Below, one piece after another: positions 4,498 through 35,339 of a stretch of 64,000 bases of DNA. Both the position numbers and the translations under genes were made by a program. The stretch's first letter is position 1; every line of letters begins with the position of its first letter. Origin of the DNA: Candidatus Nanoarchaeia archaeon (GTDB lineage Archaea; Nanobdellota; Nanobdellia; SCGC-AAA011-G17; GW2011-AR18); NCBI GenBank assembly GCA_035289605.1, contig DATDWR010000020.1, positions 10,921-74,920 of the forward strand, in the 5' to 3' direction. Under the pieces are notes generated by a model. It made no database searches and had not been told where the DNA came from. It was given only the letters and a program-made list of their open reading frames with translations.

Positions 4498-4731
4498 GTG
4501 CCTACTCGCATGGAATTAAGGCCATTAGATACTTTAAATGAAGCAAGAGGAAAAAACGTAATAGTAGAGTTGAAGAATAACAAGCAGCTAATAGGCAAAC
4601 TAAAGTCATTTGATATACATATCAATACAGTTTTAGAAAGCTGCGAAGAAAAAATAGACGGAGAAACAAGAAGAAAACTAGGAACAGTCTTCATAAGAGG
4701 GGACACAATAATCTTTATATCAACAGCATAA
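4498..4731 (+). CDS. Sm-like (LSm) archaeal protein
   Basis: Sm1/Sm2 pattern: RPLDTLNEARGKNVIVELKNNKQLIGKLKSFDIHINTVLE...FIRGDTIIFIS. It lies upstream of L37e, as in many archaea. Confidence 0.85.
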   Translation: MPTRMELRPLDTLNEARGKNVIVELKNNKQLIGKLKSFDIHINTVLESCEEKIDGETRRKLGTVFIRGDTIIFISTA

Positions 4732-4744
4732 GGAGTTCTAAACA

Positions 4745-4945
4745 ATGACAAAGGGAACAGCGTCCATGGGCAAGAAGTCTGGAAGAAGAAACCTTGTCCA
4801 GAGATGCAGAAGATGCGGAAAAAGAAGCTACCATGTGAGAAACAAGACGTGTGCAAGCTGCGGATACGGAAAAACATCAAAATTAAGAAGATACAACTGG
4901 CAAAACAAGAGAAGAGGAAAAACTGTTGTAAGATATAGACTATGA
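4745..4945 (+). CDS. rpl37e: 50S ribosomal protein L37e
   Basis: MTKGTASMGKKSGRRNLVQRCRRCGKRSYHVRNKTCASCGYG carries the zinc-ribbon eL37 signature. Confidence 0.9.
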   Translation: MTKGTASMGKKSGRRNLVQRCRRCGKRSYHVRNKTCASCGYGKTSKLRRYNWQNKRRGKTVVRYRL

Positions 4946-5092
4946 AACCCTTACCTAAAATTTTTGAAACAAAACATACTAATCTATAGATAATAAATTC
5001 TGAAAACACAAAACTAAGAAGATTCAATAAAGCAGACAAACTGATTAAAAAAGTTCATGATAGTTTGAACAAACAGGAATATAAATAGAGCA

Positions 5093-5452
5093 TTATTTCT
5101 TTTTCTTACTGAAACAAACCCATTCCTGATTGAACCTGCGCTTTTCATCAGCCAATTCCTGGAAATTCCTTTTCAATCTCCAAAGAGCAATGCATATGAA
5201 AATACTGAATACTACTGGAAGAAAAGGTCTGTCGATCACAACCAAAAAATCAGATAAACCTTCTAATTTAAAGATTATATCTAAAAGACCAAGAATTCTG
5301 CGGAAAACTGTCAATAGAAGAGCAAGAGCTATAAGACGCCAAGGCCATGAAAACTTGTTACAGCTATACATTATATAAGCATAATATGTTGCAAGAACTG
5401 CTGTTATTAATGCTATAACTTGTAATAATAATGCCAGTATATCCATCTTCAC
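5093..5452 (-). CDS. hypothetical membrane protein (about 3 TM)
   Basis: Hydrophobic segments run throughout the 119-aa ORF. Confidence 0.45.
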   Translation of the reverse strand: MKMDILALLLQVIALITAVLATYYAYIMYSCNKFSWPWRLIALALLLTVFRRILGLLDIIFKLEGLSDFLVVIDRPFLPVVFSIFICIALWRLKRNFQELADEKRRFNQEWVCFSKKKK

Positions 5453-5547
5453 CTCTTTATTATAATCTACTTAGAATTATTATATATAACACTTTCTAAT
5501 TTTTCAATAAAAAGTATTATAAATTAAGCATTGTGTATAAATATTAT

Positions 5548-5787
5548 GCGGGGATGCCGGAGAACTCACAGAGGTTCGTGCTCCTACAAACTTCGTGTGT
5601 ACGGAGTGGCCAAACGGGCTAGAAGTAAAATTTACTGGCTTAGCTTAGGTTATTTCATAGGTGTTCTGAGCTTAACAGCTATGATATAAAAGACACCTAG
5701 TGGCTTAGTGCCTACGCAGGTTCGAAAGGAATCCTTTTAAAAAAAGCATTCATGGAAAAAGGATTAACGAAAGTCCTGTTCCCCGCA
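5548..5787 (+). tRNA. tRNA gene interrupted by multiple insertions (240 nt; isotype unresolved)
   Basis: The 5' GCGGGGA pairs perfectly with TCCCCGC at 5780-5786, followed by A73. The D-arm pieces GCCGGAG...TGGCCAAACGG are split by ~43 nt. The T arm GCAGG-TTCGAA / T-CCTGT is split by a ~47-nt hairpin-forming insert. Further extra sequence lies in the anticodon/variable region. Confidence 0.7.
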
Positions 5788-5790
5788 TTA
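5777..5790 (+). repeat. candidate attL core TGTTCCCCGCATTA (overlaps tRNA 3' end)
   Basis: Exact 14-mer, also present at 24118-24131 in the same orientation. Confidence 0.6.
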
Positions 5791-5860
5791 ACCCTTCGGG
5801 GTATTGCGTTTTCTGTCCGACAAAAATTTATATGCCAAATCGTCTTAGGAGAAGATAAAC

Positions 5861-7204
5861 ATGGCAGAAAACGACATATACAACAGTCAGGGAAAATATG
5901 AGAAATTTAAGAAAACCCTTAATCTACTAACAATAAAACCAAAAACAGAGAGCACCAGAAAACAATACTATTGCAAAAACAAAGCAAACCTAGAATACTT
6001 CAAAAGAATTTTCGCAGTATTTGAAGCAAAAGATACCAGCTACATAAGAAGACTAAGACTATTACAAACATTCAAGCTAATAAGCTACGCAACAGAAAAA
6101 AATCTAGCAGAATGTGACAGAAATGACATAGGAAAAATTGTAGGATTAATGCACCAGCACTACATAAGCCCAAAAAGCAAACAAGATTTCATAAGAGACC
6201 TAAAATATCTATGGAGAACATTATTCCCCGAAGTAGATGAAAGAGGAAGACCAGACGAAACAATAATGCCCTATGTCGTAAGGCATCTTTCAGCAACAAT
6301 AGACAAAAGTAGAGAGAAACTAAGAAACGACAGACTAACATGGGAAGAATTCGAAAAAATACTAAATTATTTTAATAGCGATACAAGAATGCAAGCTTAC
6401 TTATTTCTAGCTTTAGAAAGTTTAGGAAGACCACAAGAATTATTATACATTAAAGTAAGAGACGTAGAATTATACGACAACTATGCAAAAATCTACATAA
6501 GCGAACATGGAAAGGAAGGAACAGGATTCCTACAATGCATAGACTCATTCCCATACGTAAGCAAATGGTATAACGAACACCCATTCAAGAACAACAAAGA
6601 TACATTATTCTTCATAAACCTAGAAGGATCAACAGGAAGATACGAACAAATCAAGCCCAAAAATATCAATAAAGTATTAAAAACAGCATGCGAAAGACTA
6701 GAAATAAAGAAAAGAATAACTGCTTACAGTCTAAAAAGAAACGGAGTAACCTTCAGAAGACTAAGAGGAGACTCCGATGTTGAAATACAACACGCAGCAA
6801 GATGGACTTCAACTAAACAACTTAAAACATACGACATGAGCAATCAGGAAGACGCATTCAAAATGGAACTCGTAAAAAGAGGAATAATAAATAGCAAAGA
6901 TACAAAATTAGAACATTTAAAGCCAAGAATTAAAATGTGCCTATTCTGCAACACTAATAACAAACTAACAAACGAAGTATGTTCTAATTGTTCGAGACCA
7001 TTAGACCGAGAAAAAATAAGAGAACAAGAAAAGCTGAAGGAAAAATCTTACATTGAATTAAGAGAAGAATTAAATGCTATAAAATCTGAAGAAAATAAGA
7101 AAAGTTTAGAAGTTGTAAACAATTTCTTTCAACATAAAGAAATGCAAGACTTATTAAAAGCAGTTTATAAACTTCAGAAAGAAATGGATTTAATCAAAAG
7201 ATAA
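5861..7204 (+). CDS. tyrosine recombinase / phage-type integrase with C-terminal Zn ribbon
   Basis: Box I-like LESLGRPQELL, box II-like region ...QHAARWTSTKQLKTYD with the terminal catalytic Tyr context, and C-terminal CLFCN...CSNC. The gene starts ~70 nt after the tRNA. Confidence 0.85.
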   Translation: MAENDIYNSQGKYEKFKKTLNLLTIKPKTESTRKQYYCKNKANLEYFKRIFAVFEAKDTSYIRRLRLLQTFKLISYATEKNLAECDRNDIGKIVGLMHQHYISPKSKQDFIRDLKYLWRTLFPEVDERGRPDETIMPYVVRHLSATIDKSREKLRNDRLTWEEFEKILNYFNSDTRMQAYLFLALESLGRPQELLYIKVRDVELYDNYAKIYISEHGKEGTGFLQCIDSFPYVSKWYNEHPFKNNKDTLFFINLEGSTGRYEQIKPKNINKVLKTACERLEIKKRITAYSLKRNGVTFRRLRGDSDVEIQHAARWTSTKQLKTYDMSNQEDAFKMELVKRGIINSKDTKLEHLKPRIKMCLFCNTNNKLTNEVCSNCSRPLDREKIREQEKLKEKSYIELREELNAIKSEENKKSLEVVNNFFQHKEMQDLLKAVYKLQKEMDLIKR

Positions 7205-7372
7205 ATTTTCTTTTCCTTTATTTTTAATAAACCATTTTATAATATCCCGCAGTGTTACTGATAATTCATTATTTCCAGAAATATCTTCTAATTGACTAAA
7301 AGTATTGTTATCTATTCTAAAACTTAATTTTACTTTCTTTCTTTCATCCAACTTTCTATATTTTATAGTCAT
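7190..7372 (-). CDS. small ribbon-helix-helix-like DNA-binding protein (candidate excisionase or regulator)
   Basis: 60 aa with a beta-strand-then-helices pattern (KVKLSFRIDNNTFSQLEDIS...LRDIIKWF). Its start overlaps the stop of an upstream 38-aa ORF (ATGA). Confidence 0.35.
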   Translation of the reverse strand: MTIKYRKLDERKKVKLSFRIDNNTFSQLEDISGNNELSVTLRDIIKWFIKNKGKENLSFD

Positions 7373-7485
7373 TTTTTTAATGCTTGTAATTCAGCCTCAG
7401 CCTCTTCAATAGTCTTCCTAATATTATTCAATAATCTTGAATAGATATCTTCGATATCTTGCTCAGAAAATTTATTTTTACTCAT
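7369..7485 (-). CDS. 38-aa coiled-coil-like small ORF, translationally coupled to the RHH-like gene
   Basis: Own translation: MSKNKFSEQDIEDIYSRLLNNIRKTIEEAEAELQALKK. It is below the ORF-track size cut-off. Confidence 0.2.
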   Translation of the reverse strand: MSKNKFSEQDIEDIYSRLLNNIRKTIEEAEAELQALKK

Positions 7486-7508
7486 TTCTTAATACCTCTT
7501 TTAAGTAA

Positions 7509-7808
7509 TTCATTTTTAATAGACATATTGATAAAGAAGAAATTACAGTAATTATAGATCAAGAGGCTTATGATAAAGATAATGTTATTGAAATAGAGAA
7601 AGACTGGAAAATAATTACTCTAAACATAATATTTCCTATGGATGTTGTTGGAGTTACAGCAAAAATTAGCGGAGCACTAGCAAAAGAAGGAATAAGTATA
7701 ATGCCAATAGCAGCATTTTCCAAAGATCATTTCTTGATCAAAGATAAAGATTTAGATAAGGCAGTAAAAGTTTTAGAAAAAATTGGAGTAAGTGTAAATA
7801 ATAAGTAG
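7509..7808 (+). pseudogene. ACT-domain protein fragment (N-terminally truncated)
   Basis: The frame is open from 7509 with no ATG until 7638. Translation ...WKIITLNIIFPMDVVGVTAKISGALAKEGISIMPIAAFSKDHFLIKDKDLDKAVKVLEKIG looks like the C-terminal half of a small ACT-domain protein. Confidence 0.4.
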
Positions 7809-7814
7809 AAGAGT

Positions 7815-8477
7815 TTATTTTTTTAACTTGCAAATATATCCTATGCCTGCTTTTTTGATTTCTAGCGTTTTTAGTTTTGTTTTTTTGAATATTTCTTGTA
7901 GTTCTTGTTTTGAGAATTGTTCTGATGCGTTTTCTCCTTCTTTCTCTCCAGCAAAAAATACTGTTGTTCCTTTGATTTCTTGTATTGGTGTTTTTATTTT
8001 TTTATATAATTTCATTCTTTCTTCAAAAGCATCTTCGGAATAAACACTTATTATAATAAATCCATTATTTTTGACTACCCTTTTCATTTCTTCCAAAGCT
8101 TTGAACTTATAATTATAGAAGTTTGCAAAAGTCCCAATACACAAAACAAAATCAAAATAATTATCTTCAAATGGTATACTTCTAACGTCAGCCAGTAAAA
8201 ACTTTAGTTCAGGATAAGATTTAAAATTCTCTTTAGCATCTTTAACTGCCTTAGCTTCATTATCTATACCTATTAAATTTTTTGTCTTGTTTAATAATTT
8301 TAGCAATACTCTGCCATTTCCACAACCTACTTCTAGGACTTTTGAATCTTGTGTTATTAGATTATTAAGATATTTTTCTTCTTCATCAAACCATTTCCTG
8401 TAGGACTCTGGCATATCTTTCAGTACTTTTTCCCAAAAAGAAATATTCTTCATTGTCATTATTTTGCTAGTCTCCAT
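7815..8477 (-). CDS. class I SAM-dependent methyltransferase
   Basis: Motif I VLEVGCGNGR plus downstream acidic-loop pattern. It overlaps the upstream TrmB gene by 19 nt. Confidence 0.8.
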   Translation of the reverse strand: METSKIMTMKNISFWEKVLKDMPESYRKWFDEEEKYLNNLITQDSKVLEVGCGNGRVLLKLLNKTKNLIGIDNEAKAVKDAKENFKSYPELKFLLADVRSIPFEDNYFDFVLCIGTFANFYNYKFKALEEMKRVVKNNGFIIISVYSEDAFEERMKLYKKIKTPIQEIKGTTVFFAGEKEGENASEQFSKQELQEIFKKTKLKTLEIKKAGIGYICKLKK

Positions 8478-9199
8478 AGCTCTTCAAAATATCTCTTTTG
8501 GTTTTCTGCCATTTCTTCATCTTCTATCATTACTGCAAATGGCTCTTTAGTCCAAGATTGTAGAACTACTTTATTTCCATAAATTAATGTGGCTGTAGGC
8601 GATTCTAGTTCTATCGGCATAAATTTGTATTCTGTAAGTTTTAATGATTCTGTCCTTGTTTCTACTTTATTTCTGGCTTGTTGTGTGTTGTTATAAAGTA
8701 TTTTCATTACTACTTTTTGTTTTATTCTTTTTTTATGCCATTCCTCCATAAATGCGGGTATTACCTCAAATGATGATCTTGAGCTGCCGTATGCCAAAAA
8801 TTCTTTTACTTTTGATCTTAATATATTGTTCATTACAGTTTTCATTCCCTCTTTTCCTTCAAAGATTTCTACTTTTGGTCTTTTTATTCCTTTTAGTTTA
8901 TGTAATTTTTCAAGTTGAGACATAACTTTATTAATACTCTCTTGTTTTTCTTTTAATATTCTAATTAATTCTTTTGGATCTGCAGCCCGGAAGAATTTTT
9001 TATTGGTCTTTATTGCATAAGAAATCAATCCTAAATCAATTAATCTTTCTAATATATCGTAAACTAATGTTCTTGGAAGATTTGCTTTCAATGATATTTC
9101 GCTTGCTAAAGAATCTCCTAGTTCTAGACATGCTAAATAGGCTTCTGATTCTTTTTTCGATAATCCGAATTTCTCTAAGCTTTCTATTAATTCATTCAT
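8459..9199 (-). CDS. TrmB-family transcriptional regulator (paralog 1)
   Basis: N-terminal wHTH FGLSKKESEAYLACLELGDSLASEISLKANLPRTLVYDILERLIDLGLISY plus a TrmB-type C-terminal domain. Confidence 0.8.
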   Translation of the reverse strand: MNELIESLEKFGLSKKESEAYLACLELGDSLASEISLKANLPRTLVYDILERLIDLGLISYAIKTNKKFFRAADPKELIRILKEKQESINKVMSQLEKLHKLKGIKRPKVEIFEGKEGMKTVMNNILRSKVKEFLAYGSSRSSFEVIPAFMEEWHKKRIKQKVVMKILYNNTQQARNKVETRTESLKLTEYKFMPIELESPTATLIYGNKVVLQSWTKEPFAVMIEDEEMAENQKRYFEELWRLAK

Positions 9200-9201
9200 G
9201 T

Positions 9202-9216
9202 TGTAAATAATTTACA
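9202..9216. promoter_or_regulatory. perfect 7-1-7 palindrome TGTAAATAATTTACA just upstream of TrmB paralog 1 (candidate operator)
   Basis: Read directly, 3 nt from the start codon. It is followed by a TATA-like AAATATTTAAATATTT at 9219-9234. Palindromes are common in AT-rich DNA. Confidence 0.2.
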
Positions 9217-9323
9217 GCAAATATTTAAATATTTCGCTTTAATCTAAATTTTAGGGTGATTAACATATTGAAAGAATACCATATCAGCAAGCGACGGATG
9301 AAAGAGTCAATTATTGGACTGCC

Positions 9324-9926
9324 ATGACGGGTAGGAGATTCCATAAAGAAGTAGATAATACTGCACATGCACGTCTGTTAGAACTAAGAGAGAGGGGTGG
9401 ACTTGGCTCATTATTGTGGTGTTATGACCAAAATGGACGAGAGGGTGAACAGTATAAATGGAACACCGTTGATAGACTTAAAACCACTTATATCATTGCC
9501 CAACAGCTTTTATCTCCAGAAGAAGCAAGAGAAATATTGGATCTTGCAATACATAGTAAAGTTGATTTAACAAGAAGATGGGTTGCAGAATTTAGAAAGA
9601 ATACAAAAAACGGATTATACCAAGTATCAAATGTGAGAACTGGAGATTTAGGCTTAAGAACTCACATGCCTGATCCTCAAACAGGATTTGGTTCTGAGAG
9701 TTATTTTGGTGCATATAGAATAGCTGCTAATGGTGATGATAAACATGGATTAGAGGGATTAACTATGACTGAAATAGAGTACAAAGATGAAGATGGAAGA
9801 GATATCCTCAACTATGTTTCTGCTTCTGAGGAATGGACTCCTAAAGAGAGAACGTTAAGAGAATTTGTAGAAAGAATGGTATCTATTCCTTGCAAAACTT
9901 TCATGCTTGGACTTCCTAGATATTAA
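9324..9926 (+). CDS. hypothetical protein (compositionally atypical: R/G/E/W-rich)
   Basis: 200-aa ORF with no recognisable motif. By eye it is more GC-rich than its neighbours. Confidence 0.5.
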   Translation: MTGRRFHKEVDNTAHARLLELRERGGLGSLLWCYDQNGREGEQYKWNTVDRLKTTYIIAQQLLSPEEAREILDLAIHSKVDLTRRWVAEFRKNTKNGLYQVSNVRTGDLGLRTHMPDPQTGFGSESYFGAYRIAANGDDKHGLEGLTMTEIEYKDEDGRDILNYVSASEEWTPKERTLREFVERMVSIPCKTFMLGLPRY

Positions 9927-10675
9927 ATCTTAACCATGTTCCATATCTTATTAAAAAATTCCCTATAACTCTTAGCAGTTTGTGGGGAAATTATCTCAAC
10001 TGCAAATGTATCTGGATAGGCAGTTTCTATTATTATCCTATTTTTTCCTATTGTTATTCCTTGATTTAGTGTTAACTCATGGAATTTTATTTTGTATTCT
10101 TTTTTTGATGGAAAATGTTTTTTGAATACTTCTCTTAATTCAGGCAAAGCAATCCCTCTGGCAGTAACACCTCTTGCATCCCTTTTTGCATGTATGCTCT
10201 TGAACATTAATTGGACATATTTATTCTGTAAAGCATCTTTTTCAACTGAAAAGAAAACATATTCTTCTCCTTTATTTAATTCATTAATCAAGTTCATATG
10301 TGCTGTTTTTAGTCCCAGCAGTCCTCTGTAGATATTTGCGCTTTCTTCAACATACTTTTTTAAAGATTTTTTTATTGAGTCTATTAATTCCTTTGTATGT
10401 TCTTCTGCTTCTTCCAATTTCTTTTTTTCATCCTTGATAAAATCCAGCAGATTCTCAGGATCAGCTAGATGAAATTCCTTAATGTTATTTTTTACAATAT
10501 AGTTTACTAAGCCCTTGTTTGTTAGTTTATCCAAAATTAAATATACCTTAGAACTAGACACTCCTGAATTTTCTATTATTTTAGTTATTGTACTTTTCCT
10601 TAATTTTATTAAAGATTCATACACTTTTATTTCGCCTTCTGTAAACCCTATTTCTTTTAATTTATTCAAATCCAT
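9923..10675 (-). CDS. TrmB-family transcriptional regulator (paralog 2)
   Basis: IGFTEGEIKVYESLIKLRKSTITKIIENSGVSSSKVYLILDKLTNKGLVNY wHTH. Same length class and C-terminal pattern as paralogs 1 and 3. Confidence 0.8.
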   Translation of the reverse strand: MDLNKLKEIGFTEGEIKVYESLIKLRKSTITKIIENSGVSSSKVYLILDKLTNKGLVNYIVKNNIKEFHLADPENLLDFIKDEKKKLEEAEEHTKELIDSIKKSLKKYVEESANIYRGLLGLKTAHMNLINELNKGEEYVFFSVEKDALQNKYVQLMFKSIHAKRDARGVTARGIALPELREVFKKHFPSKKEYKIKFHELTLNQGITIGKNRIIIETAYPDTFAVEIISPQTAKSYREFFNKIWNMVKI

Positions 10676-10731
10676 TATCTCACTAAGGGGGAGAATACAT
10701 ATATAATACTTTCGATTGTCATTTAACAGTT

Positions 10732-11358
10732 ATGAAAAGAACAAATTGGGATCAGTTAGCTGAAGAATATGCAAGTAGGGACTTTCCGGAAAGAGATTGG
10801 AATTTTGGTTATGAAAATGTTTTAAACCTATTAAGAAAAATTGCTGGGGAAAAAATATTGGATTATGGCTGTGGTTCTGGAAAATTTTCAAGAGTTCTTG
10901 CTGAAAGAGGAGCGCAGGTTTTAGGAATAGATACTAACGAAACAATGTTAGATTTAGCAAGAAGACAAGATTGTAAAAACATATATTATGGATTACCAGA
11001 GGATATTTCAAGTTTAGGCTATTTTGATGGAGCCGTTCTTAATTATGTTATTTGTGGCATGAGAGATGATATAGAAGTAAAAGAGGTTTTAAGAGGCATT
11101 TATACACAATTAAAACTAAACGGTTTACTTATTGTTCTTGATCCGCATCCTGCAACAAGAACCATTAGAACTGATGGAGAACCAAATGAAGTAGTTTTAG
11201 AAGGCATGACGAAACCAGTATTAGACTATTGGCGCCCAGTAGATAAATATATTTCTATTGTTTCTAGGGTAGGATTTACAATAGATAATGTTCTCGAGCC
11301 GAAAAATGAAGAGGGCATTCCTCAAATGCTTATAATAAAAGGAAAGAAAAATGTATAA
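10732..11358 (+). CDS. class I SAM-dependent methyltransferase
   Basis: Motif I ILDYGCGSGKFS. It is divergent from TrmB paralog 2 and overlaps the next gene by 8 nt. Confidence 0.8.
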   Translation: MKRTNWDQLAEEYASRDFPERDWNFGYENVLNLLRKIAGEKILDYGCGSGKFSRVLAERGAQVLGIDTNETMLDLARRQDCKNIYYGLPEDISSLGYFDGAVLNYVICGMRDDIEVKEVLRGIYTQLKLNGLLIVLDPHPATRTIRTDGEPNEVVLEGMTKPVLDYWRPVDKYISIVSRVGFTIDNVLEPKNEEGIPQMLIIKGKKNV

Positions 11359-12073
11359 AAATCATTTTCCGTTTGGAATACAAGTTTATGGAGAAACTAT
11401 AGGCGAAATTTGGATAGATATCATTGAAGCAGTAATCAAAGAAGGAAAAAACTGTTTTGATGAAGGTAGAAAAAGAAAAGCCTTAGAAAATGTTCGATTT
11501 AAGTCAAATACTCAAATAATGCCGGATGAATTAATATTAAAATATGGGGATGAAGAAAACCTTAATTCTATGTTAGATCTTACTTTTAAAGAACCAAAAA
11601 TGTTTGATTGTGATATTACTCCAAGTTTTAGTTCCGGAGCAAAAAGTTATTATCAAAGAATAAAAGAAGGGAAATTAATTGAATATGTAATAAAACGTTT
11701 AAGTCAAATCCCTGAGAGTAAAAAAGCAGTAATAGTATTCCCCAATTATGATGATTATCAACAAGTTCTAAATAATATGAAAGACGATTATTTACCCTGC
11801 TTAATTTCTATACAATTTCGCTTAGTTAAGTCAGATGATAAAAATCATATTCTAAATGCAACTTGTAATTTTAGATCATTAGACATCTTACAAAAAGGAC
11901 ATGGAAATTTATATTCTATAGCAATGATGAGCAAGATTATTGCAGAAGAATTATCTAAAAATTTGAAAACCAATGTGGATGTAGGATTCTTAGATGCCAT
12001 GATAACAGATGTGCATATTTATGAAAATACAATTGAAGAAGCGAATAAAATTTTAAATCCTATAAACAAATAA
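11351..12073 (+). CDS. thymidylate synthase (ThyA)-fold pyrimidine C5-modifying enzyme
   Basis: Motifs align to ThyA: DDYLPCLISIQF (catalytic Cys context PC..QF), NFRSLDILQKGHGNLYS (RS.D..G..N) and DVHIYENT (D.H.Y.N). Confidence 0.6.
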   Translation: MYKNHFPFGIQVYGETIGEIWIDIIEAVIKEGKNCFDEGRKRKALENVRFKSNTQIMPDELILKYGDEENLNSMLDLTFKEPKMFDCDITPSFSSGAKSYYQRIKEGKLIEYVIKRLSQIPESKKAVIVFPNYDDYQQVLNNMKDDYLPCLISIQFRLVKSDDKNHILNATCNFRSLDILQKGHGNLYSIAMMSKIIAEELSKNLKTNVDVGFLDAMITDVHIYENTIEEANKILNPINK

Positions 12074-12086
12074 AGCTATAAATAAG

Positions 12087-12110
12087 AAACACGGAAAGAT
12101 CTCCATGTTT
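12087..12110. terminator. imperfect hairpin between convergent genes (AAACACGGA-AAGATC-TCCATGTTT)
   Basis: 8 of 9 bp stem read by eye, followed by a T-run. It sits between the ThyA-like (+) and VirB4-like (-) stops. Confidence 0.2.
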
Positions 12111-12183
12111 TAGCTTTTTAAGGCTTATAAGTTGAAAGGGACACGGAAAAACCAGCCCTAAATATATCTATATTTTTGTCCGC

Positions 12184-15100
12184 TTACCCGAAGATTTTAT
12201 TGATATATTCTATTATTTGTTCCCTGCCTATTATCTGAATTCCAAATTTTTTGTATAGTTTAGATTTTTTAATTTCAGTAAGAACAATCACACAATTATT
12301 TCCATACTCATTCTTTACTGATGTAAACTTGTCTTTTATTCTGTCTTTATGCTTTTTATATCCTTCTCCTGTTTCAATTTCAATAGCGTATCTCTTTCCT
12401 TTATTGTCTGTAAATATTATGTCTGGTTTTACTGTTAGGTGTCTTTCAACGTTCTTAGTTTTAGTCAAGATATATTGGTAAATAATAGAGGTTACGAATG
12501 AGTGCATGATGCTTTCTGGCAGTTCTTCTTTTACTAAATATTCGTTAGGATTTCCTTTAGTTGTGAACTTATGGAATTTTCCAGGCTTATATCCACGATC
12601 TGTTAAGTATTGTGCTTGTTCTATTGTTATCTTGTTTCTTTCATAATAAGGAATAGCTGTATCTAGTTTTGCATCTATTTTTTTCTTGTCTAAAGGTTTT
12701 CTTTCTTTTCTTCTTTCACTTTCTAGTATTTCATCAGGATTAGTAGTAATTAGTTTATGTTCTTCTTCACTTGCTTTAATCTCTAGTTCCTGATGTTCAT
12801 TATCTAAAATTAATAATCCTGATCCTATGCTGCAAGTTAAAAGAATGTTTTTTTCTGAAGGACTAAGATTGAATACTCTTGCAATACTGTCAATAACAGC
12901 TGGTTTTTGTCTTAACAAAAAAGTATAAGATGAGTTTGCTAGTGCTGCGTGTCCGGCTTTACTATTAACCAAATCAGCAACATCCTGAGTAATCATTAAC
13001 AAACCTAAATTAAATTTTCTGCAAGTTTTTACAATTTCAAAAATGTATCCTTCTTCTTCGCTCCTAGCTAGTAAACTCCATGCTTCATCAAGAACTAAAA
13101 GTTTTCTTGTCAAATCTTTTTTCATTCTAGTATAGATATAATCAAGAACAAGGAACATTATTATTGGCTTTACCTGCTTTGGCATGAAACCTATATTAAA
13201 GCACACAAAATCATTACTGAAATCAATATTAGTCTGCTTGTCTAAGAATCCAAAAACTCCATCTTTAGTATAAATGTATAATCTGTTTATCAAAGCAGTA
13301 TATGTTGACTTTTCAGTATTGTCTGCTTTACTCATCATATCAATTAAGGTGTTGTATAAACTGCTTATTGTTGGTGTTTGTATTCCGTCATAGTTTCCTT
13401 TCTTTCTTATACCGTCTCCATTATATGTTTCATCTACAGCCTTGTCTAAAACTCCTCTTTGAACTTCTGAAAGCTCTCCAAGCATTATCTTGAATAAATC
13501 TATTAACTGTAATCTTTTTTCTTCATAAGAATGCCCCATTAAGTCTAAAGGATTGATTATTGTTGTAGAATCTTTAGAAATTGTTATTATTTGTCCTTTG
13601 CATTCTTTAGTTATTGCTGCATACTCTCCCTGTGGGTCAATAATTAGTATTTTAGTTCCCTGCATGAACAATCTTGTAAGTAATAATTTAGTAAAATAAG
13701 ACTTTCCACCCCCACTAGTAGCTAAAATTAACCCATTAGCATTAGTCAACTTGTAAAGGTCTTTAATGAAAGGTATCTTATTTTTATTTAAACCAAGCAT
13801 TATTCCTTCAGGCTCACAACTCAAAAAAGGGCTAGTAAAAGGAAAGAAAGCACTAAGAGCTTCAGTTGTAATATTTCTTTTTAATTTAAGATAGTCTTCT
13901 CCAACTGGAATTATGCTCTTGTAAGCATCACTTTGCCTGAATATCGGAACTTTAGGCTGAATCATCAAAGAATTTAGTTCACTGGAAACTTTTTGTGATA
14001 ATAAATCCAAATCTTCATATGGCTTAATTTTTTCTTTATACTCTAATAACTTATTTATTCTTTTATTATACTTTTCAGGTTTTTCTTTTTCTCCCTGAGG
14101 ATTTACTTCTTTAATTTTATTAATGTCTTGTTGTGTCAGCTTGTAGTTTTCTGTCTTCTTAGTCTTACAATTAATATAAAGTGAAACGTTGAAAAGTTTT
14201 TGTTTTCCTTTCTGCAACTCTTCCAGAACTTTTCTGGTTCCTGAATACTTTATTTCTAAAGATGGATTTATTATTCCTTTAAGGCTTTCAGAAAACATGT
14301 CAGCTCTCTGCTTTTTTAGTTCATTATTTAATTGTATAAGCATGAATTCTATAGGAAAAGGCTCTAAGTGAATACTAATATCAAAATTATCATTACTACT
14401 AATAATCTTATCCAAGAAACCTTTCTCTACACTATTAGGATAGCCTACAGCTGCAACAACCCTGTTCAAGCAATTATTAACTTCAAGATGATTCTTATTA
14501 TTAATTATAAGTTTAGGACTAACTATACAACCATTCTTTATTTCTCCCTCTTTATTATTTAATGGCTTGAAGTCTTTATACTGGTTAAAATAATTATATA
14601 ACTTGTTTAGCAAAACTTTATTCTTTTCTGTGCTTTCTACCTTGCTTACTTTTAAACCTATACTTCTTAACTTGCTTTCTACTATGTTTACTTCAATATC
14701 TAAGCTATTCTTTTCTTTTACTACAATGTAGAACTTCCTGTTCTTAATTTCATTAACACTAATACTATTATTAATAAAATTCTTATAATCATTAAATAAC
14801 TTGTTAAAATCATTCCTTAACTTATTCTTTAATACATTAAAATGGTCTTCTAAGCTAATATTTTCAGAAGCTATTAATATCTGTACTGGAAAGTCTATAC
14901 TGTTCAAGAATTTCTGGAAACTTTGAATAATAACCTCTTTTTCTTCATCACTCTTAATATTAAAATTGATAGGCTGAACTTCTAATAAAACTATTCTTTG
15001 ATTCTTATTATTAATAATATAACTGTCTGTAACTTCATTAATTCCTATAAAGCTCTTCATTGAACTAGAAAAGTCATCTGTCCTTCTAAACTTGAAAAAA

Positions 15101-15324
15101 TGAATAAAATTCTTAATCCAGACTTTAGCACTAAAAAACATAAATAATATTGCTATAATAGTTATGAAAATAATTAAAGTAAACTTTAGATTATTATTAC
15201 TTATTAACTTGAAAATTATTGTACTAAAACCTAAAGAAACACCTGAATAAATCAACTGTTCGAAAGTCAAACTAAATATGATCTTCTCTTTATGCTGCAA
15301 AGGCGGTGGAATTTCGTAAGACAT
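12184..15324 (-). CDS. VirB4/TrbE/CedB-type conjugation ATPase with N-terminal membrane hairpin and C-terminal PD-(D/E)XK-like domain
   Basis: Walker A ATSGGGKSYF, Walker B LLVLDEAWSLL and MITQDVADL are present. The N-terminus has two TM helices (VirB3-like). The C-terminal ~190 aa contain ESIMHS...VKPDIIFTDNKGKRYAIEIETG. Confidence 0.8.
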   Translation of the reverse strand: MSYEIPPPLQHKEKIIFSLTFEQLIYSGVSLGFSTIIFKLISNNNLKFTLIIFITIIAILFMFFSAKVWIKNFIHFFKFRRTDDFSSSMKSFIGINEVTDSYIINNKNQRIVLLEVQPINFNIKSDEEKEVIIQSFQKFLNSIDFPVQILIASENISLEDHFNVLKNKLRNDFNKLFNDYKNFINNSISVNEIKNRKFYIVVKEKNSLDIEVNIVESKLRSIGLKVSKVESTEKNKVLLNKLYNYFNQYKDFKPLNNKEGEIKNGCIVSPKLIINNKNHLEVNNCLNRVVAAVGYPNSVEKGFLDKIISSNDNFDISIHLEPFPIEFMLIQLNNELKKQRADMFSESLKGIINPSLEIKYSGTRKVLEELQKGKQKLFNVSLYINCKTKKTENYKLTQQDINKIKEVNPQGEKEKPEKYNKRINKLLEYKEKIKPYEDLDLLSQKVSSELNSLMIQPKVPIFRQSDAYKSIIPVGEDYLKLKRNITTEALSAFFPFTSPFLSCEPEGIMLGLNKNKIPFIKDLYKLTNANGLILATSGGGKSYFTKLLLTRLFMQGTKILIIDPQGEYAAITKECKGQIITISKDSTTIINPLDLMGHSYEEKRLQLIDLFKIMLGELSEVQRGVLDKAVDETYNGDGIRKKGNYDGIQTPTISSLYNTLIDMMSKADNTEKSTYTALINRLYIYTKDGVFGFLDKQTNIDFSNDFVCFNIGFMPKQVKPIIMFLVLDYIYTRMKKDLTRKLLVLDEAWSLLARSEEEGYIFEIVKTCRKFNLGLLMITQDVADLVNSKAGHAALANSSYTFLLRQKPAVIDSIARVFNLSPSEKNILLTCSIGSGLLILDNEHQELEIKASEEEHKLITTNPDEILESERRKERKPLDKKKIDAKLDTAIPYYERNKITIEQAQYLTDRGYKPGKFHKFTTKGNPNEYLVKEELPESIMHSFVTSIIYQYILTKTKNVERHLTVKPDIIFTDNKGKRYAIEIETGEGYKKHKDRIKDKFTSVKNEYGNNCVIVLTEIKKSKLYKKFGIQIIGREQIIEYINKIFG

Positions 15325-15338
15325 TAGAAATCAATAAA

Positions 15339-16037
15339 TCAATATTTTTTAGCTACTAAATAAGAAACATCACAATTTTTTATGTAATTCTTCCAGAATT
15401 CTTTTCCATATAATTTAATTCCTTCTGAAGACACTATTGGCTTAAACCATTTGATTGAGTTAAACCCCGCTTCTTTTAGAAGTTTTTCTATATTTTCTTT
15501 TGTATGAAAAAAAGAACTTAAAGTCATTAAATATTTTTTATTGTATAAATGTATTAATATTACGGCTCCTTCTTTTAATTTTGGTGTAACTTCTTTTATT
15601 GAACCATATTCTCTTGAATCTTGATAAGTAGAATTAGGCATATCAAAAATACAGACTATTTTTCCAGATTGGTTTAATGAATTATAAAATTTTTTGAATA
15701 ATCTACTTAAACCATTATACTTTTCATAATTTAATACAAAAGGAGCAACAATAATATCAGATTTAGGATAATCAAAATTATTCATATTAGCAATTATGTA
15801 ATTTGTGTTTGGTAAAGAATTTCTCTTAGCGCTTTCTATAGCTTCTTTTGCTATATCTATACCATAAATTTTCTTAGAATCTCTTGCTAGATTTTTAGTG
15901 AAAAATCCATCACCACAACCAATATCAATTAAAGTTTTATTCTTGATACTGCCACATAGTTTTATGACTGTAGGAAGCATACTATATTTCTTATCTGGCT
16001 TATCGTGAGTCCTATAATATTTATTGAATTTTTGCAC
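15339..16037 (-). CDS. class I SAM-dependent methyltransferase
   Basis: Motif I LIDIGCGDGFF. It overlaps the upstream transporter gene by 17 nt. Confidence 0.75.
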   Translation of the reverse strand: MQKFNKYYRTHDKPDKKYSMLPTVIKLCGSIKNKTLIDIGCGDGFFTKNLARDSKKIYGIDIAKEAIESAKRNSLPNTNYIIANMNNFDYPKSDIIVAPFVLNYEKYNGLSRLFKKFYNSLNQSGKIVCIFDMPNSTYQDSREYGSIKEVTPKLKEGAVILIHLYNKKYLMTLSSFFHTKENIEKLLKEAGFNSIKWFKPIVSSEGIKLYGKEFWKNYIKNCDVSYLVAKKY

Positions 16038-16719
16038 TTTTCCCGTACATTATTATTCTATTTATATACATGAAAGGAATATCTATAACTGCAACAACCC
16101 ATTTGATTACGATTGTCCCTATAATTATCGGAAGTAAGGGTTGAACACCATAGAATGCTATTGAAGCAAAGATTACGCTATCTAACGCCATTGAAGGGAT
16201 AGAACTTAAAGCATTCCTTGCCCATAAATGTTTTCCATTTGTCAGTTTTTTAAATAATGCAAAAATGTAAGCATCAGCATTTTCACTAATTAAGAAAGCG
16301 CACCAACTTGCCAAGATAATTCTTGGAACAAAACCAAAGATTTTCTGAAATATTTCTTGATTATTCCAAAAAGGAGCTGGAGGCAGACTTATAGCAATCC
16401 AAATAAAGAAGGTTACAGCTATTTGTGTTATAAAAGCTATAAAAATCATCTTCTGAGTTTCTTTTCTTCCAAACCTCTCATTTACTATATCTGTTAACAA
16501 AAATGTAAGAGAAAAAACTATGACTGGAGAACCTGTATAAAACGTGACAAATCCAAAATCAAACGCTGCAATCTTAAAAGCAATAATATTACTGATTAAA
16601 ACAAAAGACACATACAAACCAATCAATGCATCAGGAGTGTTATATTTTTTAACATACCAAGAGCCAAAGAATGTAAAAGCACTTACAACCAAAATCCATA
16701 AAATTATAATTAATAACAT
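16021..16719 (-). CDS. YhhQ/VUT-family (queuosine-precursor type) transporter
   Basis: ~6 TM, 232 aa, with LLTDIVNERFGRKETQKMIF and ENADAYIF / ALDSVIF patterns as I recall for the DUF165/YhhQ family. Confidence 0.55.
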   Translation of the reverse strand: MLLIIILWILVVSAFTFFGSWYVKKYNTPDALIGLYVSFVLISNIIAFKIAAFDFGFVTFYTGSPVIVFSLTFLLTDIVNERFGRKETQKMIFIAFITQIAVTFFIWIAISLPPAPFWNNQEIFQKIFGFVPRIILASWCAFLISENADAYIFALFKKLTNGKHLWARNALSSIPSMALDSVIFASIAFYGVQPLLPIIIGTIVIKWVVAVIDIPFMYINRIIMYGKSAKIQ

Positions 16720-16788
16720 TAGTTTTTTAACACTCCAATCTAAAGATTAATACAAAATATTTAAATAATAGTTCTCCCACTTAGGAGT

Positions 16789-17526
16789 ATGGCAATAGAA
16801 GATTTAAAGTTCTTAGACTTGACAGATAATGAAATAAGGGTATATTTAGCCATTCTAAAAAATGGGAAACTTACTGGCACTAAGATAAAACAAATAACCA
16901 GTATAGCCAACTCAAGAGTTTATTCAGCAATAGATTCACTAATATCAAAAGGAATAATTATTTATGAAAAACACCAAAAAGGAAGATTATACGCAGCTAT
17001 TAATCCTGAAATATTAAAAGAATTAATGAAAGAAAGAATGGAAAAAATAGAAAAAACCATACCAATACTAAAAGAATTACAGAGTAATGAAAAAACTGAA
17101 ACAGAAAGTGCAGTATTTGAAGGACTACAAGGATTTAGAACAGCATTAATAAAGTTGGCAAACGAGTGTCCAATAGGAGAAACAATACATATCATAGGAT
17201 TTTCAAATCAAAACTACAAAAATGAAAAACTGGCAGCAATATTAAACACTGTAAACAAAATATCAATGAAAAGAAAACACAAATTCAAAATGATACTGGA
17301 TGACGAAGAAAATAAATTCTTCGAAAAAAGAAAAAAGGAAGGATTATCAGAAATAAGATTCATGGGAAACAACTTCAAAAGTCCAGCAGCAATAGACATA
17401 TTCCAAGACTATGTATACATATTACTATGGGATGAAAACCCCTATGCATTTATAATAAAAAACAAAAACATAGCAGAAGGATTCAAAATATACTTCAACT
17501 TCCTATGGAACATGGCAAAAAAGTAA
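16789..17526 (+). CDS. TrmB-family transcriptional regulator (paralog 3)
   Basis: LDLTDNEIRVYLAILKNGKLTGTKIKQITSIANSRVYSAIDSLISKGIIIY wHTH. It is divergent from the transporter-methyltransferase pair. Confidence 0.8.
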   Translation: MAIEDLKFLDLTDNEIRVYLAILKNGKLTGTKIKQITSIANSRVYSAIDSLISKGIIIYEKHQKGRLYAAINPEILKELMKERMEKIEKTIPILKELQSNEKTETESAVFEGLQGFRTALIKLANECPIGETIHIIGFSNQNYKNEKLAAILNTVNKISMKRKHKFKMILDDEENKFFEKRKKEGLSEIRFMGNNFKSPAAIDIFQDYVYILLWDENPYAFIIKNKNIAEGFKIYFNFLWNMAKK

Positions 17527-18435
17527 TTAAACTCCTCCAGCAGCCATCATAATTCCTGTTTTTATTTCAGAATAGACTTCTCCCATTCCTGATTTGTTAA
17601 TTATGAACTTAATCAGTAATAAGAATACTAAGTCTACAAGCAAAAAACTAACAATGTAAAATATTATTGTAAAGTGTTCTACTATTGGAGCAGTAACAAG
17701 CAAACTACAACCTAAAATTATTATAGAACAAATAAAAGGAATAAAAATAAGCATAACAATCAAGTTAATTATAAGCTTGCCATAACTTCTAAGGAAATGA
17801 ACAAAATAAAGAAATATTCCTATAGGAAAGAATATCACTCCAAGACTAACAAAAACCCATCTGGCTAATAAAAAAATACAAGTAATAATCAAGACTAACA
17901 CATAAGGAATAATCATCAAAATCTGCAATAAAGCATTACCAAAACTATCACTAGTAACAGTAAAAAAAGAAGGACTAACATTACTAAAAACATAACCAGT
18001 CAAGCTAGAATTTAATTCAATTAGTAAATTGTATAAATAAAAACTAGAACTAACCAAAACCAAAGCAATAATCATGTTCTTTATTGATTCTTTAGCATGA
18101 TGTCTTTTAACTATATCTTCACTGTTCAAAATAAAAACACTACCTGAATACAAAAGAAAGAAGATATAGAATACACTAATAATCCCAATAATAGTAAACC
18201 AGGCACTCTCAAAAACACCAGTATTGGGAATAGTAGTCATCAAGTCAACAACCCAACTAATAAAAGGCTGAGCAGCTAATCCTGTAGTATGAGAAACTAT
18301 TCTTGCTACATCACCAAGACAACTCAAAAGAGAGAAAAAAGAACAACCAGAATCATTACTATCTGAAGAATCAGCTAAAGACATAGGCAAGACTAAAAGA
18401 AGAACTACAAATAAAGTTAGAAGTTTAGATTTCAT
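17527..18435 (-). CDS. polytopic membrane protein with signal peptide (VirB6/TrbL/CedA-like candidate)
   Basis: Signal peptide, a short Ser/Asp/Cys-rich ectodomain, then ~6-7 TM helices. The assignment rests on topology and context only. Confidence 0.4.
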   Translation of the reverse strand: MKSKLLTLFVVLLLVLPMSLADSSDSNDSGCSFFSLLSCLGDVARIVSHTTGLAAQPFISWVVDLMTTIPNTGVFESAWFTIIGIISVFYIFFLLYSGSVFILNSEDIVKRHHAKESIKNMIIALVLVSSSFYLYNLLIELNSSLTGYVFSNVSPSFFTVTSDSFGNALLQILMIIPYVLVLIITCIFLLARWVFVSLGVIFFPIGIFLYFVHFLRSYGKLIINLIVMLIFIPFICSIIILGCSLLVTAPIVEHFTIIFYIVSFLLVDLVFLLLIKFIINKSGMGEVYSEIKTGIMMAAGGV

Positions 18436-18575
18436 TTTTAGAAAGAAAATTTATTTTATAATAATCATTAGAATTTTCAGGCACAAACCAAATGGTTTTT
18501 GCATTTTCCTAATACTTTGATCTAGATTAAAGTTATAGTTAATTATTTAAACTAGAATAAACCTAAAATCTTGAT

Positions 18576-18779
18576 ATGAAAAATAAAGTCATCATTTTTG
18601 TTATTTTGTTGATAATATTGAGTTTGTTTTTGTTCGGTTGTAATGATAAATTTGAAAATCCTGAATGTCAAAATGATCTAGATTGTAAAGATATGGGTGC
18701 TCTAGGTGGTCAATGTATAAATAATCATTGTCAACTAAACCCTGAACCTACATCACCACCAGCCTTACCGGAGGAATAA
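18576..18779 (+). CDS. small secreted Cys-rich protein (lipobox-like LFGC)
   Basis: Signal peptide ending LFLFGC, then 6 Cys in 40 aa and a Pro-rich tail. Confidence 0.5.
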   Translation: MKNKVIIFVILLIILSLFLFGCNDKFENPECQNDLDCKDMGALGGQCINNHCQLNPEPTSPPALPEE

Positions 18780-18782
18780 AAT

Positions 18783-19481
18783 ATGAAAAAAATAATCGCT
18801 CTAATTTTAGTATTAATAATTTCTAGTTTGTCAGTTTTAGCAATAATTAATGGAATGACTCCTGGAGATAGGCTAGGAGATAAAACAAAGTATGAGATAG
18901 GTGTAAAAGTTGAGAAAGGTTGGAACTTATTAGTCGCAGCAACTCCAGACTTAATATCACAAGACAGGATTTATGGCGGAGGAGACATAAAAAAGGAGAA
19001 TATAAAGATGATTTATGTATTTAATCCGTTTATTCAGCAGTATGCAAGAGTATTCCCAAATCCAGAACAGGAAAAAATTCATAAATTAGTGGAATCGTTT
19101 CCTCAAGACTCTGACTTATTAGCTAATTCTGCATGGGTTTACAGCGACAAAGCAGGATATTTAAGATTTAGACCTGATGAATACTTACTGGATTTAGAAG
19201 ATAGAAAATTAGTTCTTGGGTGGAATTTTGTGGGAATTACTCCAGAATTTACAGGTAAAAAATTCAAAGAAATGACAGGAAACTGCATTATAGAAAAGGC
19301 TTACGTATATGTCTACCAGGATGGGACAAACCCTCACTGGGAAAAGATAGTGCAAGAAAAAGATTCTTTAATACCCAAAGAATTCGAAGGAATGGGAATG
19401 GTTGTAAAAGTAAAGGGCGAACCATGTAGTATGGGTGGAATGAAAACTGCAGAAAATACAGTGCCATCATTACCTGCTTAA
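18783..19481 (+). CDS. hypothetical secreted protein
   Basis: Signal peptide MKKIIALILVLIISSLSVLA; 232 aa. Confidence 0.5.
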   Translation: MKKIIALILVLIISSLSVLAIINGMTPGDRLGDKTKYEIGVKVEKGWNLLVAATPDLISQDRIYGGGDIKKENIKMIYVFNPFIQQYARVFPNPEQEKIHKLVESFPQDSDLLANSAWVYSDKAGYLRFRPDEYLLDLEDRKLVLGWNFVGITPEFTGKKFKEMTGNCIIEKAYVYVYQDGTNPHWEKIVQEKDSLIPKEFEGMGMVVKVKGEPCSMGGMKTAENTVPSLPA

Positions 19482-19486
19482 AAATT

Positions 19487-21181: not shown

Positions 21182-21203
21182 TAGAAGAAGATTTCTGGTG
21201 ATT

Positions 21204-21932: not shown

Positions 21933-22018
21933 TAAATGCTTAAATTTATATTATTAATAAATATTATTATATAATTATACACAAAAACGATAAATATATA
22001 AATATTAATATATTTTAT

Positions 22019-23005: not shown

Positions 23006-23132
23006 AAAAATTATTCCTTTCTAGTCACTATACCTTCGCTATATTTGTGAAGAGAACAGTTATAGTTCCTTCTAGCTCAAGCGGTACAGTCACACACGTT
23101 ATAAAAAAGTCCAAAGAATAAACAAGGGACTT

Positions 23133-24117: not shown

Positions 24118-24131
24118 TGTTCCCCGCATTA
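24118..24131 (+). repeat. candidate attR core TGTTCCCCGCATTA
   Basis: Exact copy of 5777-5790. Its last 3 nt are the stop codon (complement) of the 248-aa membrane-protein gene. Confidence 0.6.
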
Positions 24132-35332: not shown

Positions 35333-35339
35333 AAATAAA

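Follow-up and report, generated by a model that had tools for sequence, protein, structure and literature searches.

The published maximum for the intron-rich Thermoproteales is three introns per transfer RNA (tRNA) gene, with 71 introns in 46 genes (PMC8450103), and a preprint on intron-rich Asgard families reports 2.2 introns per gene and up to five in one gene (10.64898/2026.10.13.758758). For DPANN archaea, Kaneta et al. (2018) found that alpha4-type EndAs with an 'L3' loop accompany raised tRNA disruption, and the tRNA sets predicted for genomes of Woesearchaeota and Pacearchaeota were noted to be incomplete, with disrupted genes suspected of going undetected there (PMC5829648). Here we describe a 240-nucleotide (nt) locus in a 64,000-nt stretch of DNA from a Candidatus Nanoarchaeia archaeon (contig DATDWR010000020.1 of assembly GCA_035289605.1; C20:10921-74920, hereafter the window). 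The locus is very probably a chromosomal, functional tRNA-Leu(UAG) gene of a Woesearchaeota-type (DPANN) archaeon that is spliced from five exons. Its four introns exceed the peer-reviewed ceiling of three and lie within the range of the Asgard preprint.

The gene occupies 5548..5787 of the window, on the plus strand with all of its parts, and its five exons and four introns (240 nt) correspond to a mature RNA of 84 nt. Exon 1 (5548..5562, 15 nt; GCGGGGATGCCGGAG) holds the 5' strand of the acceptor stem, U8 and G9, the 5' strand of the D-stem and the start of the D-loop, which is interrupted after position 15, at 15/16, by intron 1 (5563..5606, 44 nt). Exon 2 (5607..5622, 16 nt; TGGCCAAACGGGCTAG) carries the remainder of the D-arm, position 26 and positions 27-30 of the anticodon stem, and is followed by intron 2 (5623..5642, 20 nt) at 30/31, within the 5' strand of that stem. 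Exon 3 is a micro-exon, GCTTAGG (5643..5649, 7 nt), that spans positions 31-37 with U33, the anticodon UAG and G37. Intron 3 (5650..5694, 45 nt), at the canonical 37/38 position, separates it from exon 4 (5695..5726, 32 nt), which comprises A38, the 3' strand of the anticodon stem, the long variable arm, the 5' strand of the T-stem and T-loop positions 54-59. The T-loop is split at 59/60 by intron 4 (5727..5773, 47 nt), and exon 5 (5774..5787, 14 nt) supplies U60, the 3' strands of the T-stem and the acceptor stem, and A73. The exons have a GC content of 62% and the introns 35%, against ~33% for the genome. All five exons are collinear within the 240 nt, which is not the arrangement of a split or permuted tRNA gene.

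Much of this had been glimpsed in a preliminary description of the locus. The 7-base-pair (bp) acceptor stem GCGGGGA/TCCCCGC with A73 that it saw across 240 nt is present at 5548-5787, and the 47-nt insert with a 9-bp hairpin (AATCCTTTT/AAAAGGATT) that it placed in the T-loop after TTCGAA lies at 5727-5773. It was right that the D-arm halves are split by a CGGAG-flanked insert, although the length of that insert is 44 nt (5563-5606) and not ~43. Its count of at least three insertions holds, since there are four, the middle that it left unresolved being two introns around GCTTAGG. The 7-bp helix TAGGTGT/ACACCTA that it drew there can indeed form, between 5658-5664 and 5693-5699, but it is no tRNA arm: it pairs intron 3 with its own 3' splice site and the 3' strand of the anticodon stem. 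The suggested long variable arm is present as GGC-UUAGU-GCC, and the D-arm and A73 that had looked Leu-like agree, together with that long arm, with the Leu identity that ARAGORN assigns to the spliced product. The proposed anticodons, CUG or UCU, have to be replaced by UAG, which lies in the loop CUUAGGA.

Splicing in silico gives the 84-mer GCGGGGATGCCGGAGTGGCCAAACGGGCTAGGCTTAGGACCTAGTGGCTTAGTGCCTACGCAGGTTCGAATCCTGTTCCCCGCA, which ARAGORN reports as tRNA-Leu(tag), a type-II cloverleaf with all stems intact. The product has U33, G37, A73, the T-loop UUCGAAU and a 5-bp Watson-Crick anticodon stem (CUAGG/CCUAG), the anticodon loop CUUAGGA being drawn from the micro-exon (5643-5649) and A5695. 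Its variable arm (UGGCUUAGUGCCUAC) is long and has a 3-bp stem, as expected of a type-II tRNA-Leu, which A73 and the Leu anticodon also mark. Once the D-arm insert is taken out, the D-arm and the variable arm are identical to those of the tRNA-Leu(CAA) paralogue that ARAGORN found in the same genome (C12:9062-9197; CCGGAGTGGCCAAACGG and TGGCTTAGTGCC). Independently of the junction-by-junction parse, we aligned the compact tRNAs of two same-order genomes, allowing for splicing, to the whole genome, with a strict intron penalty and validation by ARAGORN; this locus ranked first in the genome, as Leu(UAG) with 4 introns. Unspliced, it was detected neither by ARAGORN, with or without intron mode, nor by the Rfam tRNA model at the gathering threshold or at E <= 10. 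Other tRNAs of the window are detected by ARAGORN and Rfam, and Rfam is also blind to every intron-bearing Leu orthologue, one-intron genes included. No group I or group II ribozyme core gave an Rfam match at E <= 10, where only a chance small RNA appeared, and the inserts are just 20-47 nt long.

Archaeal splice sites consist of a 4-bp helix between two 3-nt bulges, each of which is cut after its second base. When this bulge-helix-bulge (BHB) rule is applied to the middle of the locus, with a geometry that we checked against the canonical 37/38 case, two introns flanking the 7-nt exon result. The preliminary description had made its reading depend on whether BHB-compatible splice sites could be predicted, and two bulges with a 4-bp helix are predictable at all four junctions, as hBHBh' or relaxed HBh'/hBH motifs. 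Intron 1 has the central helix CCGG/ACGG (3/4 pairs), an intron helix of 6/8 pairs and a weak outer helix. For intron 2 the central helix is GGCU/GGCU (4/4), the bulges are AG-a and UA-G (cut at the hyphen), the intron hairpin pairs at 5/5 and the outer helix is again weak. Intron 3 combines CUUA/AAAG (3/4) with the bulges GG-u and AC-A, an intron helix of 7/8 and the anticodon stem as outer helix, and intron 4 has UUCG/CGAA (4/4), an intron helix of 6/8 (the 9-bp hairpin past a 2-nt mismatch) and the T-stem, at 5/6, as outer helix. Because of the CGGAG repeat, six cut positions are equivalent for intron 1 and all give the same mature RNA; the 15/16 register is the best of them with its 3/4 central pairs, the remaining five shifts reaching at most 1/4.

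To judge these motifs against chance, we drew 300,000 random genome positions for each intron length and counted how often pairing was equal or better. The resulting probabilities were 0.006 for intron 1 (0.037 after multiplication by its six registers), 1.8e-4 for intron 2, 1.1e-3 for intron 3 and 8.4e-4 for intron 4. Sliding the boundaries by 1-4 nt lowered the score in every case, and the fold of the 240 nt has z = -2.55 relative to shuffled sequences. Judged by sequence, and given the intact mature tRNA and the splicing genes described below, all four inserts are very probably introns of the archaeal EndA-dependent (BHB) type.

Comparison with relatives, which had been recommended as a check, matched every junction with at least one gene that is without the intron in question. 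Leu genes were taken from related genomes and spliced; ten of them (seven UAG, two AAG and one GAG) were run through ARAGORN, which called all ten Leu, and the genes of G016, G007, G010 and G044 were parsed by eye only. Within the genus, the G003 gene has introns 3 and 4, with CCGGAGTGGCC and GGGCTAGGCTTAGG contiguous, and that of G002 has introns 2, 3 and 4. In the same family, introns 2, 3 and 4 are found in G024, introns 2 and 3 in G016, G007 and G010, and intron 3 only in G009, where GGGCTGGGCTTAGG is contiguous at the intron-2 site. Two genomes belong to other families of the order: G041 has introns 2 and 3, a compensated anticodon stem (CUGGG/CCCAG) and a contiguous GGTTCGAATCCTGT, and G044 has intron 2 only, with GCTTAGGACCTAG contiguous.

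Across this set each intron is missing at exactly the predicted bonds in one or more orthologues. Exons 1 and 2 are joined in G003, G009 and G024, and in the Leu(CAA) paralogue; intron 2 is absent from G003 and G009, intron 3 from G044, and intron 4 from G009 and G041 (GGTTCGAAyCCTGT contiguous). The central helix of intron 2 covaries, having changed on both sides from GGCU/GGCU here to GAUC/GGUC in G002, where it still pairs at 4/4. The 7-mer of the micro-exon stands between introns 2 and 3 in G002, G024, G041, G016, G007 and G010 as well. We had also considered a single large middle intron and rejected it, as it would remove the anticodon and the orthologues show the 7-mer to be exonic. The orthologues thus form a series of one, two, three and four introns in which the gene of this genome is the most interrupted, and such a series within a genus and family is natural material for studying tRNA intron gain.

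The genome (839 kb in 22 contigs, estimated 86% complete) appears to need this tRNA and encodes enzymes that would splice it. The Leu loci recovered are UAG (this gene, on C20), AAG (C3), CAA (C12) and UAA (C10:46635-46754), and no second UAG or any CAG Leu tRNA was found in the assembly. In 352 open reading frames (ORFs) of >= 250 amino acids, CUA makes up 17.4% and CUG 8.6% of the Leu codons, together 26%. A single EndA gene was found (PF01974, 104 bits, C10:16605-16865), in an ORF of 240 amino acids from the first GTG or ~219 from a later ATG, with a charged N-terminal extension. Among PDB structures it best matches the alpha subunit of N. equitans (3iey_A, 1.7e-34), followed by the alpha4 enzyme of M. 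jannaschii (1a79, 1.7e-31). The alignment with the M. jannaschii protein is free of gaps, and the six extra residues of N. equitans in the loop before the conserved His are lacking from this EndA. From its sequence it looks like a plain alpha-type subunit. RtcB is encoded on contig C11 (PF01139, 501 bits).

The introns themselves show signs of movement. The tRNA-Leu(AAG) paralogue (C3:8872-9084, 213 nt) has introns at the same four positions; its first 77 nt, intron 1 included, are 100% identical to the UAG gene, and its intron 4 is 94% identical to intron 4 there. Introns 2 (20 nt) and 3 (19 nt) of the paralogue show no sequence relationship to those of the UAG gene but keep the BHB (GGCU/GGUC and CUAA/UUAG, both 4/4). 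The orthologue of this paralogue in same-genus G001, which has the same upstream gene, carries intron 4 only. Among 27 family genomes intron 1 is confined to this one, in two Leu genes and with 100% identity, and no further copies were found in its own genome or in the other 26 family species genomes. This pattern suggests that intron 1 was gained very recently, after which the two Leu genes underwent gene conversion with each other.

The entire body of intron 4 has a homologue in the 37/38 intron of a tRNA-Val(UAC) at C8:8300-8454, a locus that ARAGORN calls Glu(UUC) and that after splicing is Val(UAC) with a D-arm intron and the canonical intron. What differs is the exon-pairing segment at the 3' end, which is CGAA in Leu, where it pairs with the T-loop UUCG, and UAAG in Val, where it pairs with CUUA of the anticodon loop. 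One intron family thus occupies two tRNA positions, Leu 59/60 and Val 37/38; in the Thermoproteales such a pattern has been termed intron transposition (Fujishima 2010, as summarised in PMC4090602). The introns of this gene therefore appear to be evolutionarily young and mobile, their presence varying within the genus.

The 3' end of the gene has been used as an integration site, as the preliminary description had proposed from the sequence: a 14-nt repeat, an adjoining tyrosine recombinase and an empty site in the same genus all bear this out. The attL core (TGTTCCCCGCATTA, 5777..5790, plus strand, 14 nt) consists of the last 11 nt of the tRNA and 3 nt more, and the identical 14-mer forms the attR core at 24118..24131 (plus strand), which the original chromosomal flank of the tRNA follows. 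From base composition, we estimate a chance expectation of ~1e-4 for such a 14-mer in the window. The tyrosine recombinase (integrase) gene (5861..7204, plus strand; Pfam Phage_integrase PF00589, E = 1.2e-10) starts 73 nt past the tRNA. In G002 the site is empty, its tRNA-Leu(UAG) being joined directly to a homologue of the flank that lies beyond attR here; this homology, which takes in the next gene (24129-24890), is seen at the nucleotide level (AACTTTCTTGACAAAATA...AACAGAAGGAA) and by tblastx. Taken together, the repeats, the integrase, the conserved upstream side and the empty site in G002 indicate that ~18.3 kb (5788-24117) were inserted into the tRNA 3' end, and an adjoining integrase, direct repeats and an empty site are what defines a tRNA-integrating tyrosine-recombinase element.

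Upstream of the tRNA lie an LSm gene (4498-4731) and the gene of ribosomal protein L37e (4745..4945, plus strand; 88% identity to G003 L37e by tblastn), both of which are conserved neighbours of tRNA-Leu(UAG) in related genomes. The order LSm-L37e-tRNA-Leu recurs in G002, G003, G024, G040 and G041, and because this synteny is kept in relatives we regard the gene as chromosomal and not delivered by the element. Related elements are present at this tRNA in G024 and G007, where homologous integrase-side flanks adjoin it. The tRNA part of the repeat lies in exon 5, the last exon (14 nt), beyond the intron in the T-loop, and since that exon alone overlaps the repeat, the four introns did not block use of the gene as a target. 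By one hypothesis (Randau and Soll 2008, as cited in PMC4090602), introns shield tRNA genes against integrating elements; an intron-rich gene that still serves as an integration site bears on it.

Some further observations concern the surroundings of the element. A 60%-identical integrase in a Candidatus Woesearchaeota metagenome-assembled genome (MAG; CAZCCK010000019.1), the one named relative that a search with the integrase recovered, lies directly downstream of a tRNA-Gly(UCC) (L062 1020-1125) that has a 15-nt canonical intron, and from the Leu and Gly neighbours it follows that this integrase family targets different tRNA genes. The gap between L37e and the tRNA (4946-5547) is ~600 nt long, similarly long in G002 and <200 nt in G003; a minus-strand ORF of 119 amino acids within it (5093-5452) has no Pfam match.

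Several points weigh against the reading of this locus as a functional gene of five exons. Two of the four central helices, those of introns 1 and 3, pair at 3/4 only, and the weak outer helices at introns 1 and 2 make these motifs of the relaxed HBh' type. Relaxed motifs sit uneasily with what appears to be a plain alpha-type EndA, as alpha4 enzymes are reported to require strict BHB motifs (PMC5829648). The 7-bp helix over the 3' splice site of intron 3 dominates thermodynamic predictions in several genomes and would have to open before cleavage. In addition, the assembly is 86% complete, and what it lacks could include another, compact gene for Leu(UAG) or Leu(CAG) or the gene of a further EndA subunit. 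This incompleteness also lends something to the explanation that the locus is a decayed pseudo-tRNA, its inserts being junk in a dead gene beside an element while the real Leu(UAG) lies elsewhere, as do the failure of ARAGORN and Rfam to see the locus and the mobile element next to it. We nevertheless consider a pseudo-tRNA extremely unlikely. Not a single exon base disrupts the cloverleaf, the splice motifs are retained in all four inserts, and orthologues and paralogue retain the design with compensatory changes. Nearly all tRNA genes of the genome are similarly interrupted, and despite the heavy use of CUA and CUG no other UAG or CAG gene was found; the functional copy elsewhere that the preliminary description had allowed for does not appear in the assembly.

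Even with a functional gene, the transcript might be spliced differently, with intron 2 at 31/32 (giving the stem CUAGA/CCUAG with an A31-C39 mismatch) or intron 1 in another register. A shift of intron 2 by one base would also give an 84-nt product, the Leu(CAA) paralogue does have A31 (AUAGA), and the CGGAG repeat leaves the position of intron 1 indeterminate from the mature sequence alone. Pairing at intron 2, however, is 4/4 and 5/5 at 30/31 and <= 1/4 one base further on, orthologues that lack intron 2 have G31 (GGGCTAGGCTTAGG or GGGCTGGGCTTAGG), and intron 1 attains 3/4 central pairs at 15/16 alone, the mature RNA being unaffected by the choice among its six registers; such alternative splicing is therefore very unlikely. 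We give virtually no credence to the idea that the tRNA copy was borne by the element, or is a chimaera derived from attP, and was not the chromosomal target. The integrase does begin only 73 nt past the tRNA, and the complete identity of the 5' 77 nt to the Leu(AAG) gene, which is on a different contig, could suggest copying. Yet the order LSm-L37e-tRNA-Leu(UAG) is kept in genomes with and without the element, the tRNA of G002 continues into the sequence found after attR here, and the repeat overlaps the last 11 nt of the gene only. A chromosomal tRNA-Leu(UAG) gene with the four introns placed as above remains the preferred reading.

Based on this gene structure, we propose that a precursor of ~240 nt would be transcribed from an A/T-rich, TATA-like box ~28 nt upstream, and that RtcB would join the five exons (15, 16, 7, 32 and 14 nt) into the 84-nt type-II tRNA. 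In each BHB, exon bases would pair with a short complement at the 3' end of the intron: the 5' strand of the D-stem with ACGG for intron 1, positions 25-28 with GGCU for intron 2, CUU(A) of the anticodon loop with AAAG for intron 3 and UUCG of the T-loop with CGAA for intron 4. The internal hairpin of each intron would add further pairing. As exon 3 is just 7 nt long, and cutting of both its flanks before ligation would mean that the anticodon piece is lost, splicing would have to be ordered.

A candidate for imposing such an order is the 7-bp helix between UAGGUGU (5658..5664, plus strand), within intron 3, and ACACCTA (5693..5699, plus strand), which consists of the last two bases of intron 3 and positions 38-42. 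Aligned across eight genomes, the helix has 94% of its cells paired, compared with 34-49% when the partner is slid, and two pairs have undergone compensated changes, one from A-U to G-C, which tracks the exon change U41 to C41, and one from G-C to A-U via G-U. The excess of pairing and the compensatory changes show the helix to be conserved and not accidental. It buries the 3' splice site of intron 3 and crosses the BHB intron helix, so that the two structures are mutually exclusive; the minimum-energy fold predicted for the precursor includes the helix. All seven genes in which introns 2 and 3 of this family occur together have it; where intron 2 is absent it is reduced to 5 bp (G009) or missing (G003), and it is missing too from the C3 paralogue with its short intron 3.

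Such a helix would keep positions 39-43 off positions 27-30 during formation of the intron-2 BHB, which uses 25-28 with bulge positions 29-30, and would mask the 3' splice site of intron 3 until exons 2 and 3 are ligated, so that the micro-exon would never be freed. If this were true, the order of multi-intron tRNA splicing would be programmed by the introns themselves. In ViennaRNA, deleting intron 2 did not move the predicted pairing away from the 7-bp helix and towards the anticodon stem; as no folding switch was seen, what speaks for the splicing-order hypothesis is its logic and the co-occurrence of helix and introns. That the helix is an intron-encoded timing device that orders splicing, in introns that also spread among the tRNA genes of this Woesearchaeota lineage by transposition and gene conversion and are handled by a plain alpha-type endonuclease, is a tentative proposal that we consider more doubtful than probable. 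A C/D-box guide in intron 3 was also considered, and rejected since the CUGA and AUGAUA motifs are unconserved in the orthologues.

The gene belongs to a genome in which interruption of tRNA genes is the rule. Above threshold, Rfam detected 14 tRNAs; ARAGORN detected 15 and miscalled several. In G060 and G027, of the same order, there are 35-37 tRNAs, most of them compact; genome sizes among same-order relatives range from 0.5 to 1.2 Mb. In a reference-guided census, ~28 loci fold as tRNAs once spliced, with 0-4 introns per gene (mean ~2) and Ala(GGC) as the sole uninterrupted one; these counts are approximate and a lower bound, as ~15 tRNAs remain unfound. An essential tRNA can thus escape standard annotation entirely in DPANN genomes, and since such genes are invisible, "missing" tRNAs in MAGs of this kind would be an artefact of intron load and not a biological loss.

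Spliced alignment also recovered four other interrupted tRNAs in the window: Val(GAC) at 35337-35435 (1 intron), Thr(GGU) at 37973-38112 (2 introns; miscalled Asp(AUC) by ARAGORN), Gln(CUG) at 43511-43598 (1 intron; miscalled Tyr(AUA)) and Gln(UUG) at 45264-45397 (3 introns). Archaea normally use G34 at the anticodons of Leu(AAG) and Arg(ACG), but A34 is encoded at C3:8872-9084 and C12:45845-45929, and in G001 (L006), G040 (L017) and G060 (L038), the Leu(AAG) of G060 being an intron-less gene of 84 nt. A search of this 86%-complete genome for a TadA-like deaminase (PF14437) found none. The rtcB gene itself carries two BHB-like mini-inserts on the minus strand, at C11:40146-40177 and ~C11:40039-40068. 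Removal of the 32-nt insert restores MPDGHWG-YGFPIGG; the 30-nt insert, which has two TAA codons and the central helix UUCG/CGAA, restores GGIGFD-INCGMR when removed. The gene is uninterrupted in same-genus G001. In G005, G006, G015, G018, G029 and G032 the rtcB match is split near profile position 50 within open frames of ~950-1010 amino acids, which suggests an intein at that site, and in G010, G016 and G038 there are short frame-breaking gaps or a stop codon that resemble the mini-inserts here.

Our literature search found no published description of such multi-intron tRNAs in this DPANN lineage. Mechanistically, the gene is an ordinary substrate of archaeal BHB splicing, taken to an unusual degree, and it adds a Woesearchaeota lineage to the Thermoproteales and some Asgard archaea as intron-rich. 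It does so with a series that includes a very recent gain common to two paralogues and an intron family at two tRNA positions, and it prompts one to ask how a seemingly simple alpha-type EndA copes with relaxed motifs and an exon of 7 nt. Like this gene, those of the Thermoproteales (Pyrobaculum, Thermofilum, Caldivirga) have nested or adjacent introns that need ordered removal, and related introns at different positions of different tRNAs (Fujishima 2010, as summarised in PMC4090602). They differ in having at most three introns where this gene has four, and in their (alpha-beta)2 EndA with a specific loop, where we find one alpha-type gene with no obvious insertion; the host here is a DPANN archaeon whose genome (0.84 Mb, 33% GC) is mesophile-like.

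The likeness to the Asgard families of the preprint lies in the interruption of most tRNA genes, the ~2 introns per gene, the many D-arm introns missed by standard annotators, the repeated lineage-specific gains and the placement of introns at BHB-capable sites. The Asgard families, however, belong to an unrelated phylum, and the preprint reports no general evidence that introns were copied from one tRNA gene to another, in contrast to the signs of copying here, where two Leu genes carry identical copies of intron 1, and Leu and Val have intron 4 in common. With other DPANN archaea (the split tRNAs of Nanoarchaeum, the epsilon2 EndA of ARMAN-2, and the alpha4 EndAs with an L3 loop, PMC5829648) the genome shares small size and raised tRNA disruption, but this gene is cis-spliced with multiple introns, neither split nor permuted, and nothing in the EndA here corresponds to the additional residues of the alpha subunit of N. 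equitans. As a target, it resembles the tRNA genes used by SSV-type and pTN3-like archaeal elements and bacterial genomic islands, in which the integrase also lies by the tRNA 3' end, the repeat restores that end and relatives have an empty site. It differs from them in that the repeat is just 14 nt long and lies downstream of a T-loop intron, the target being a gene with four introns.

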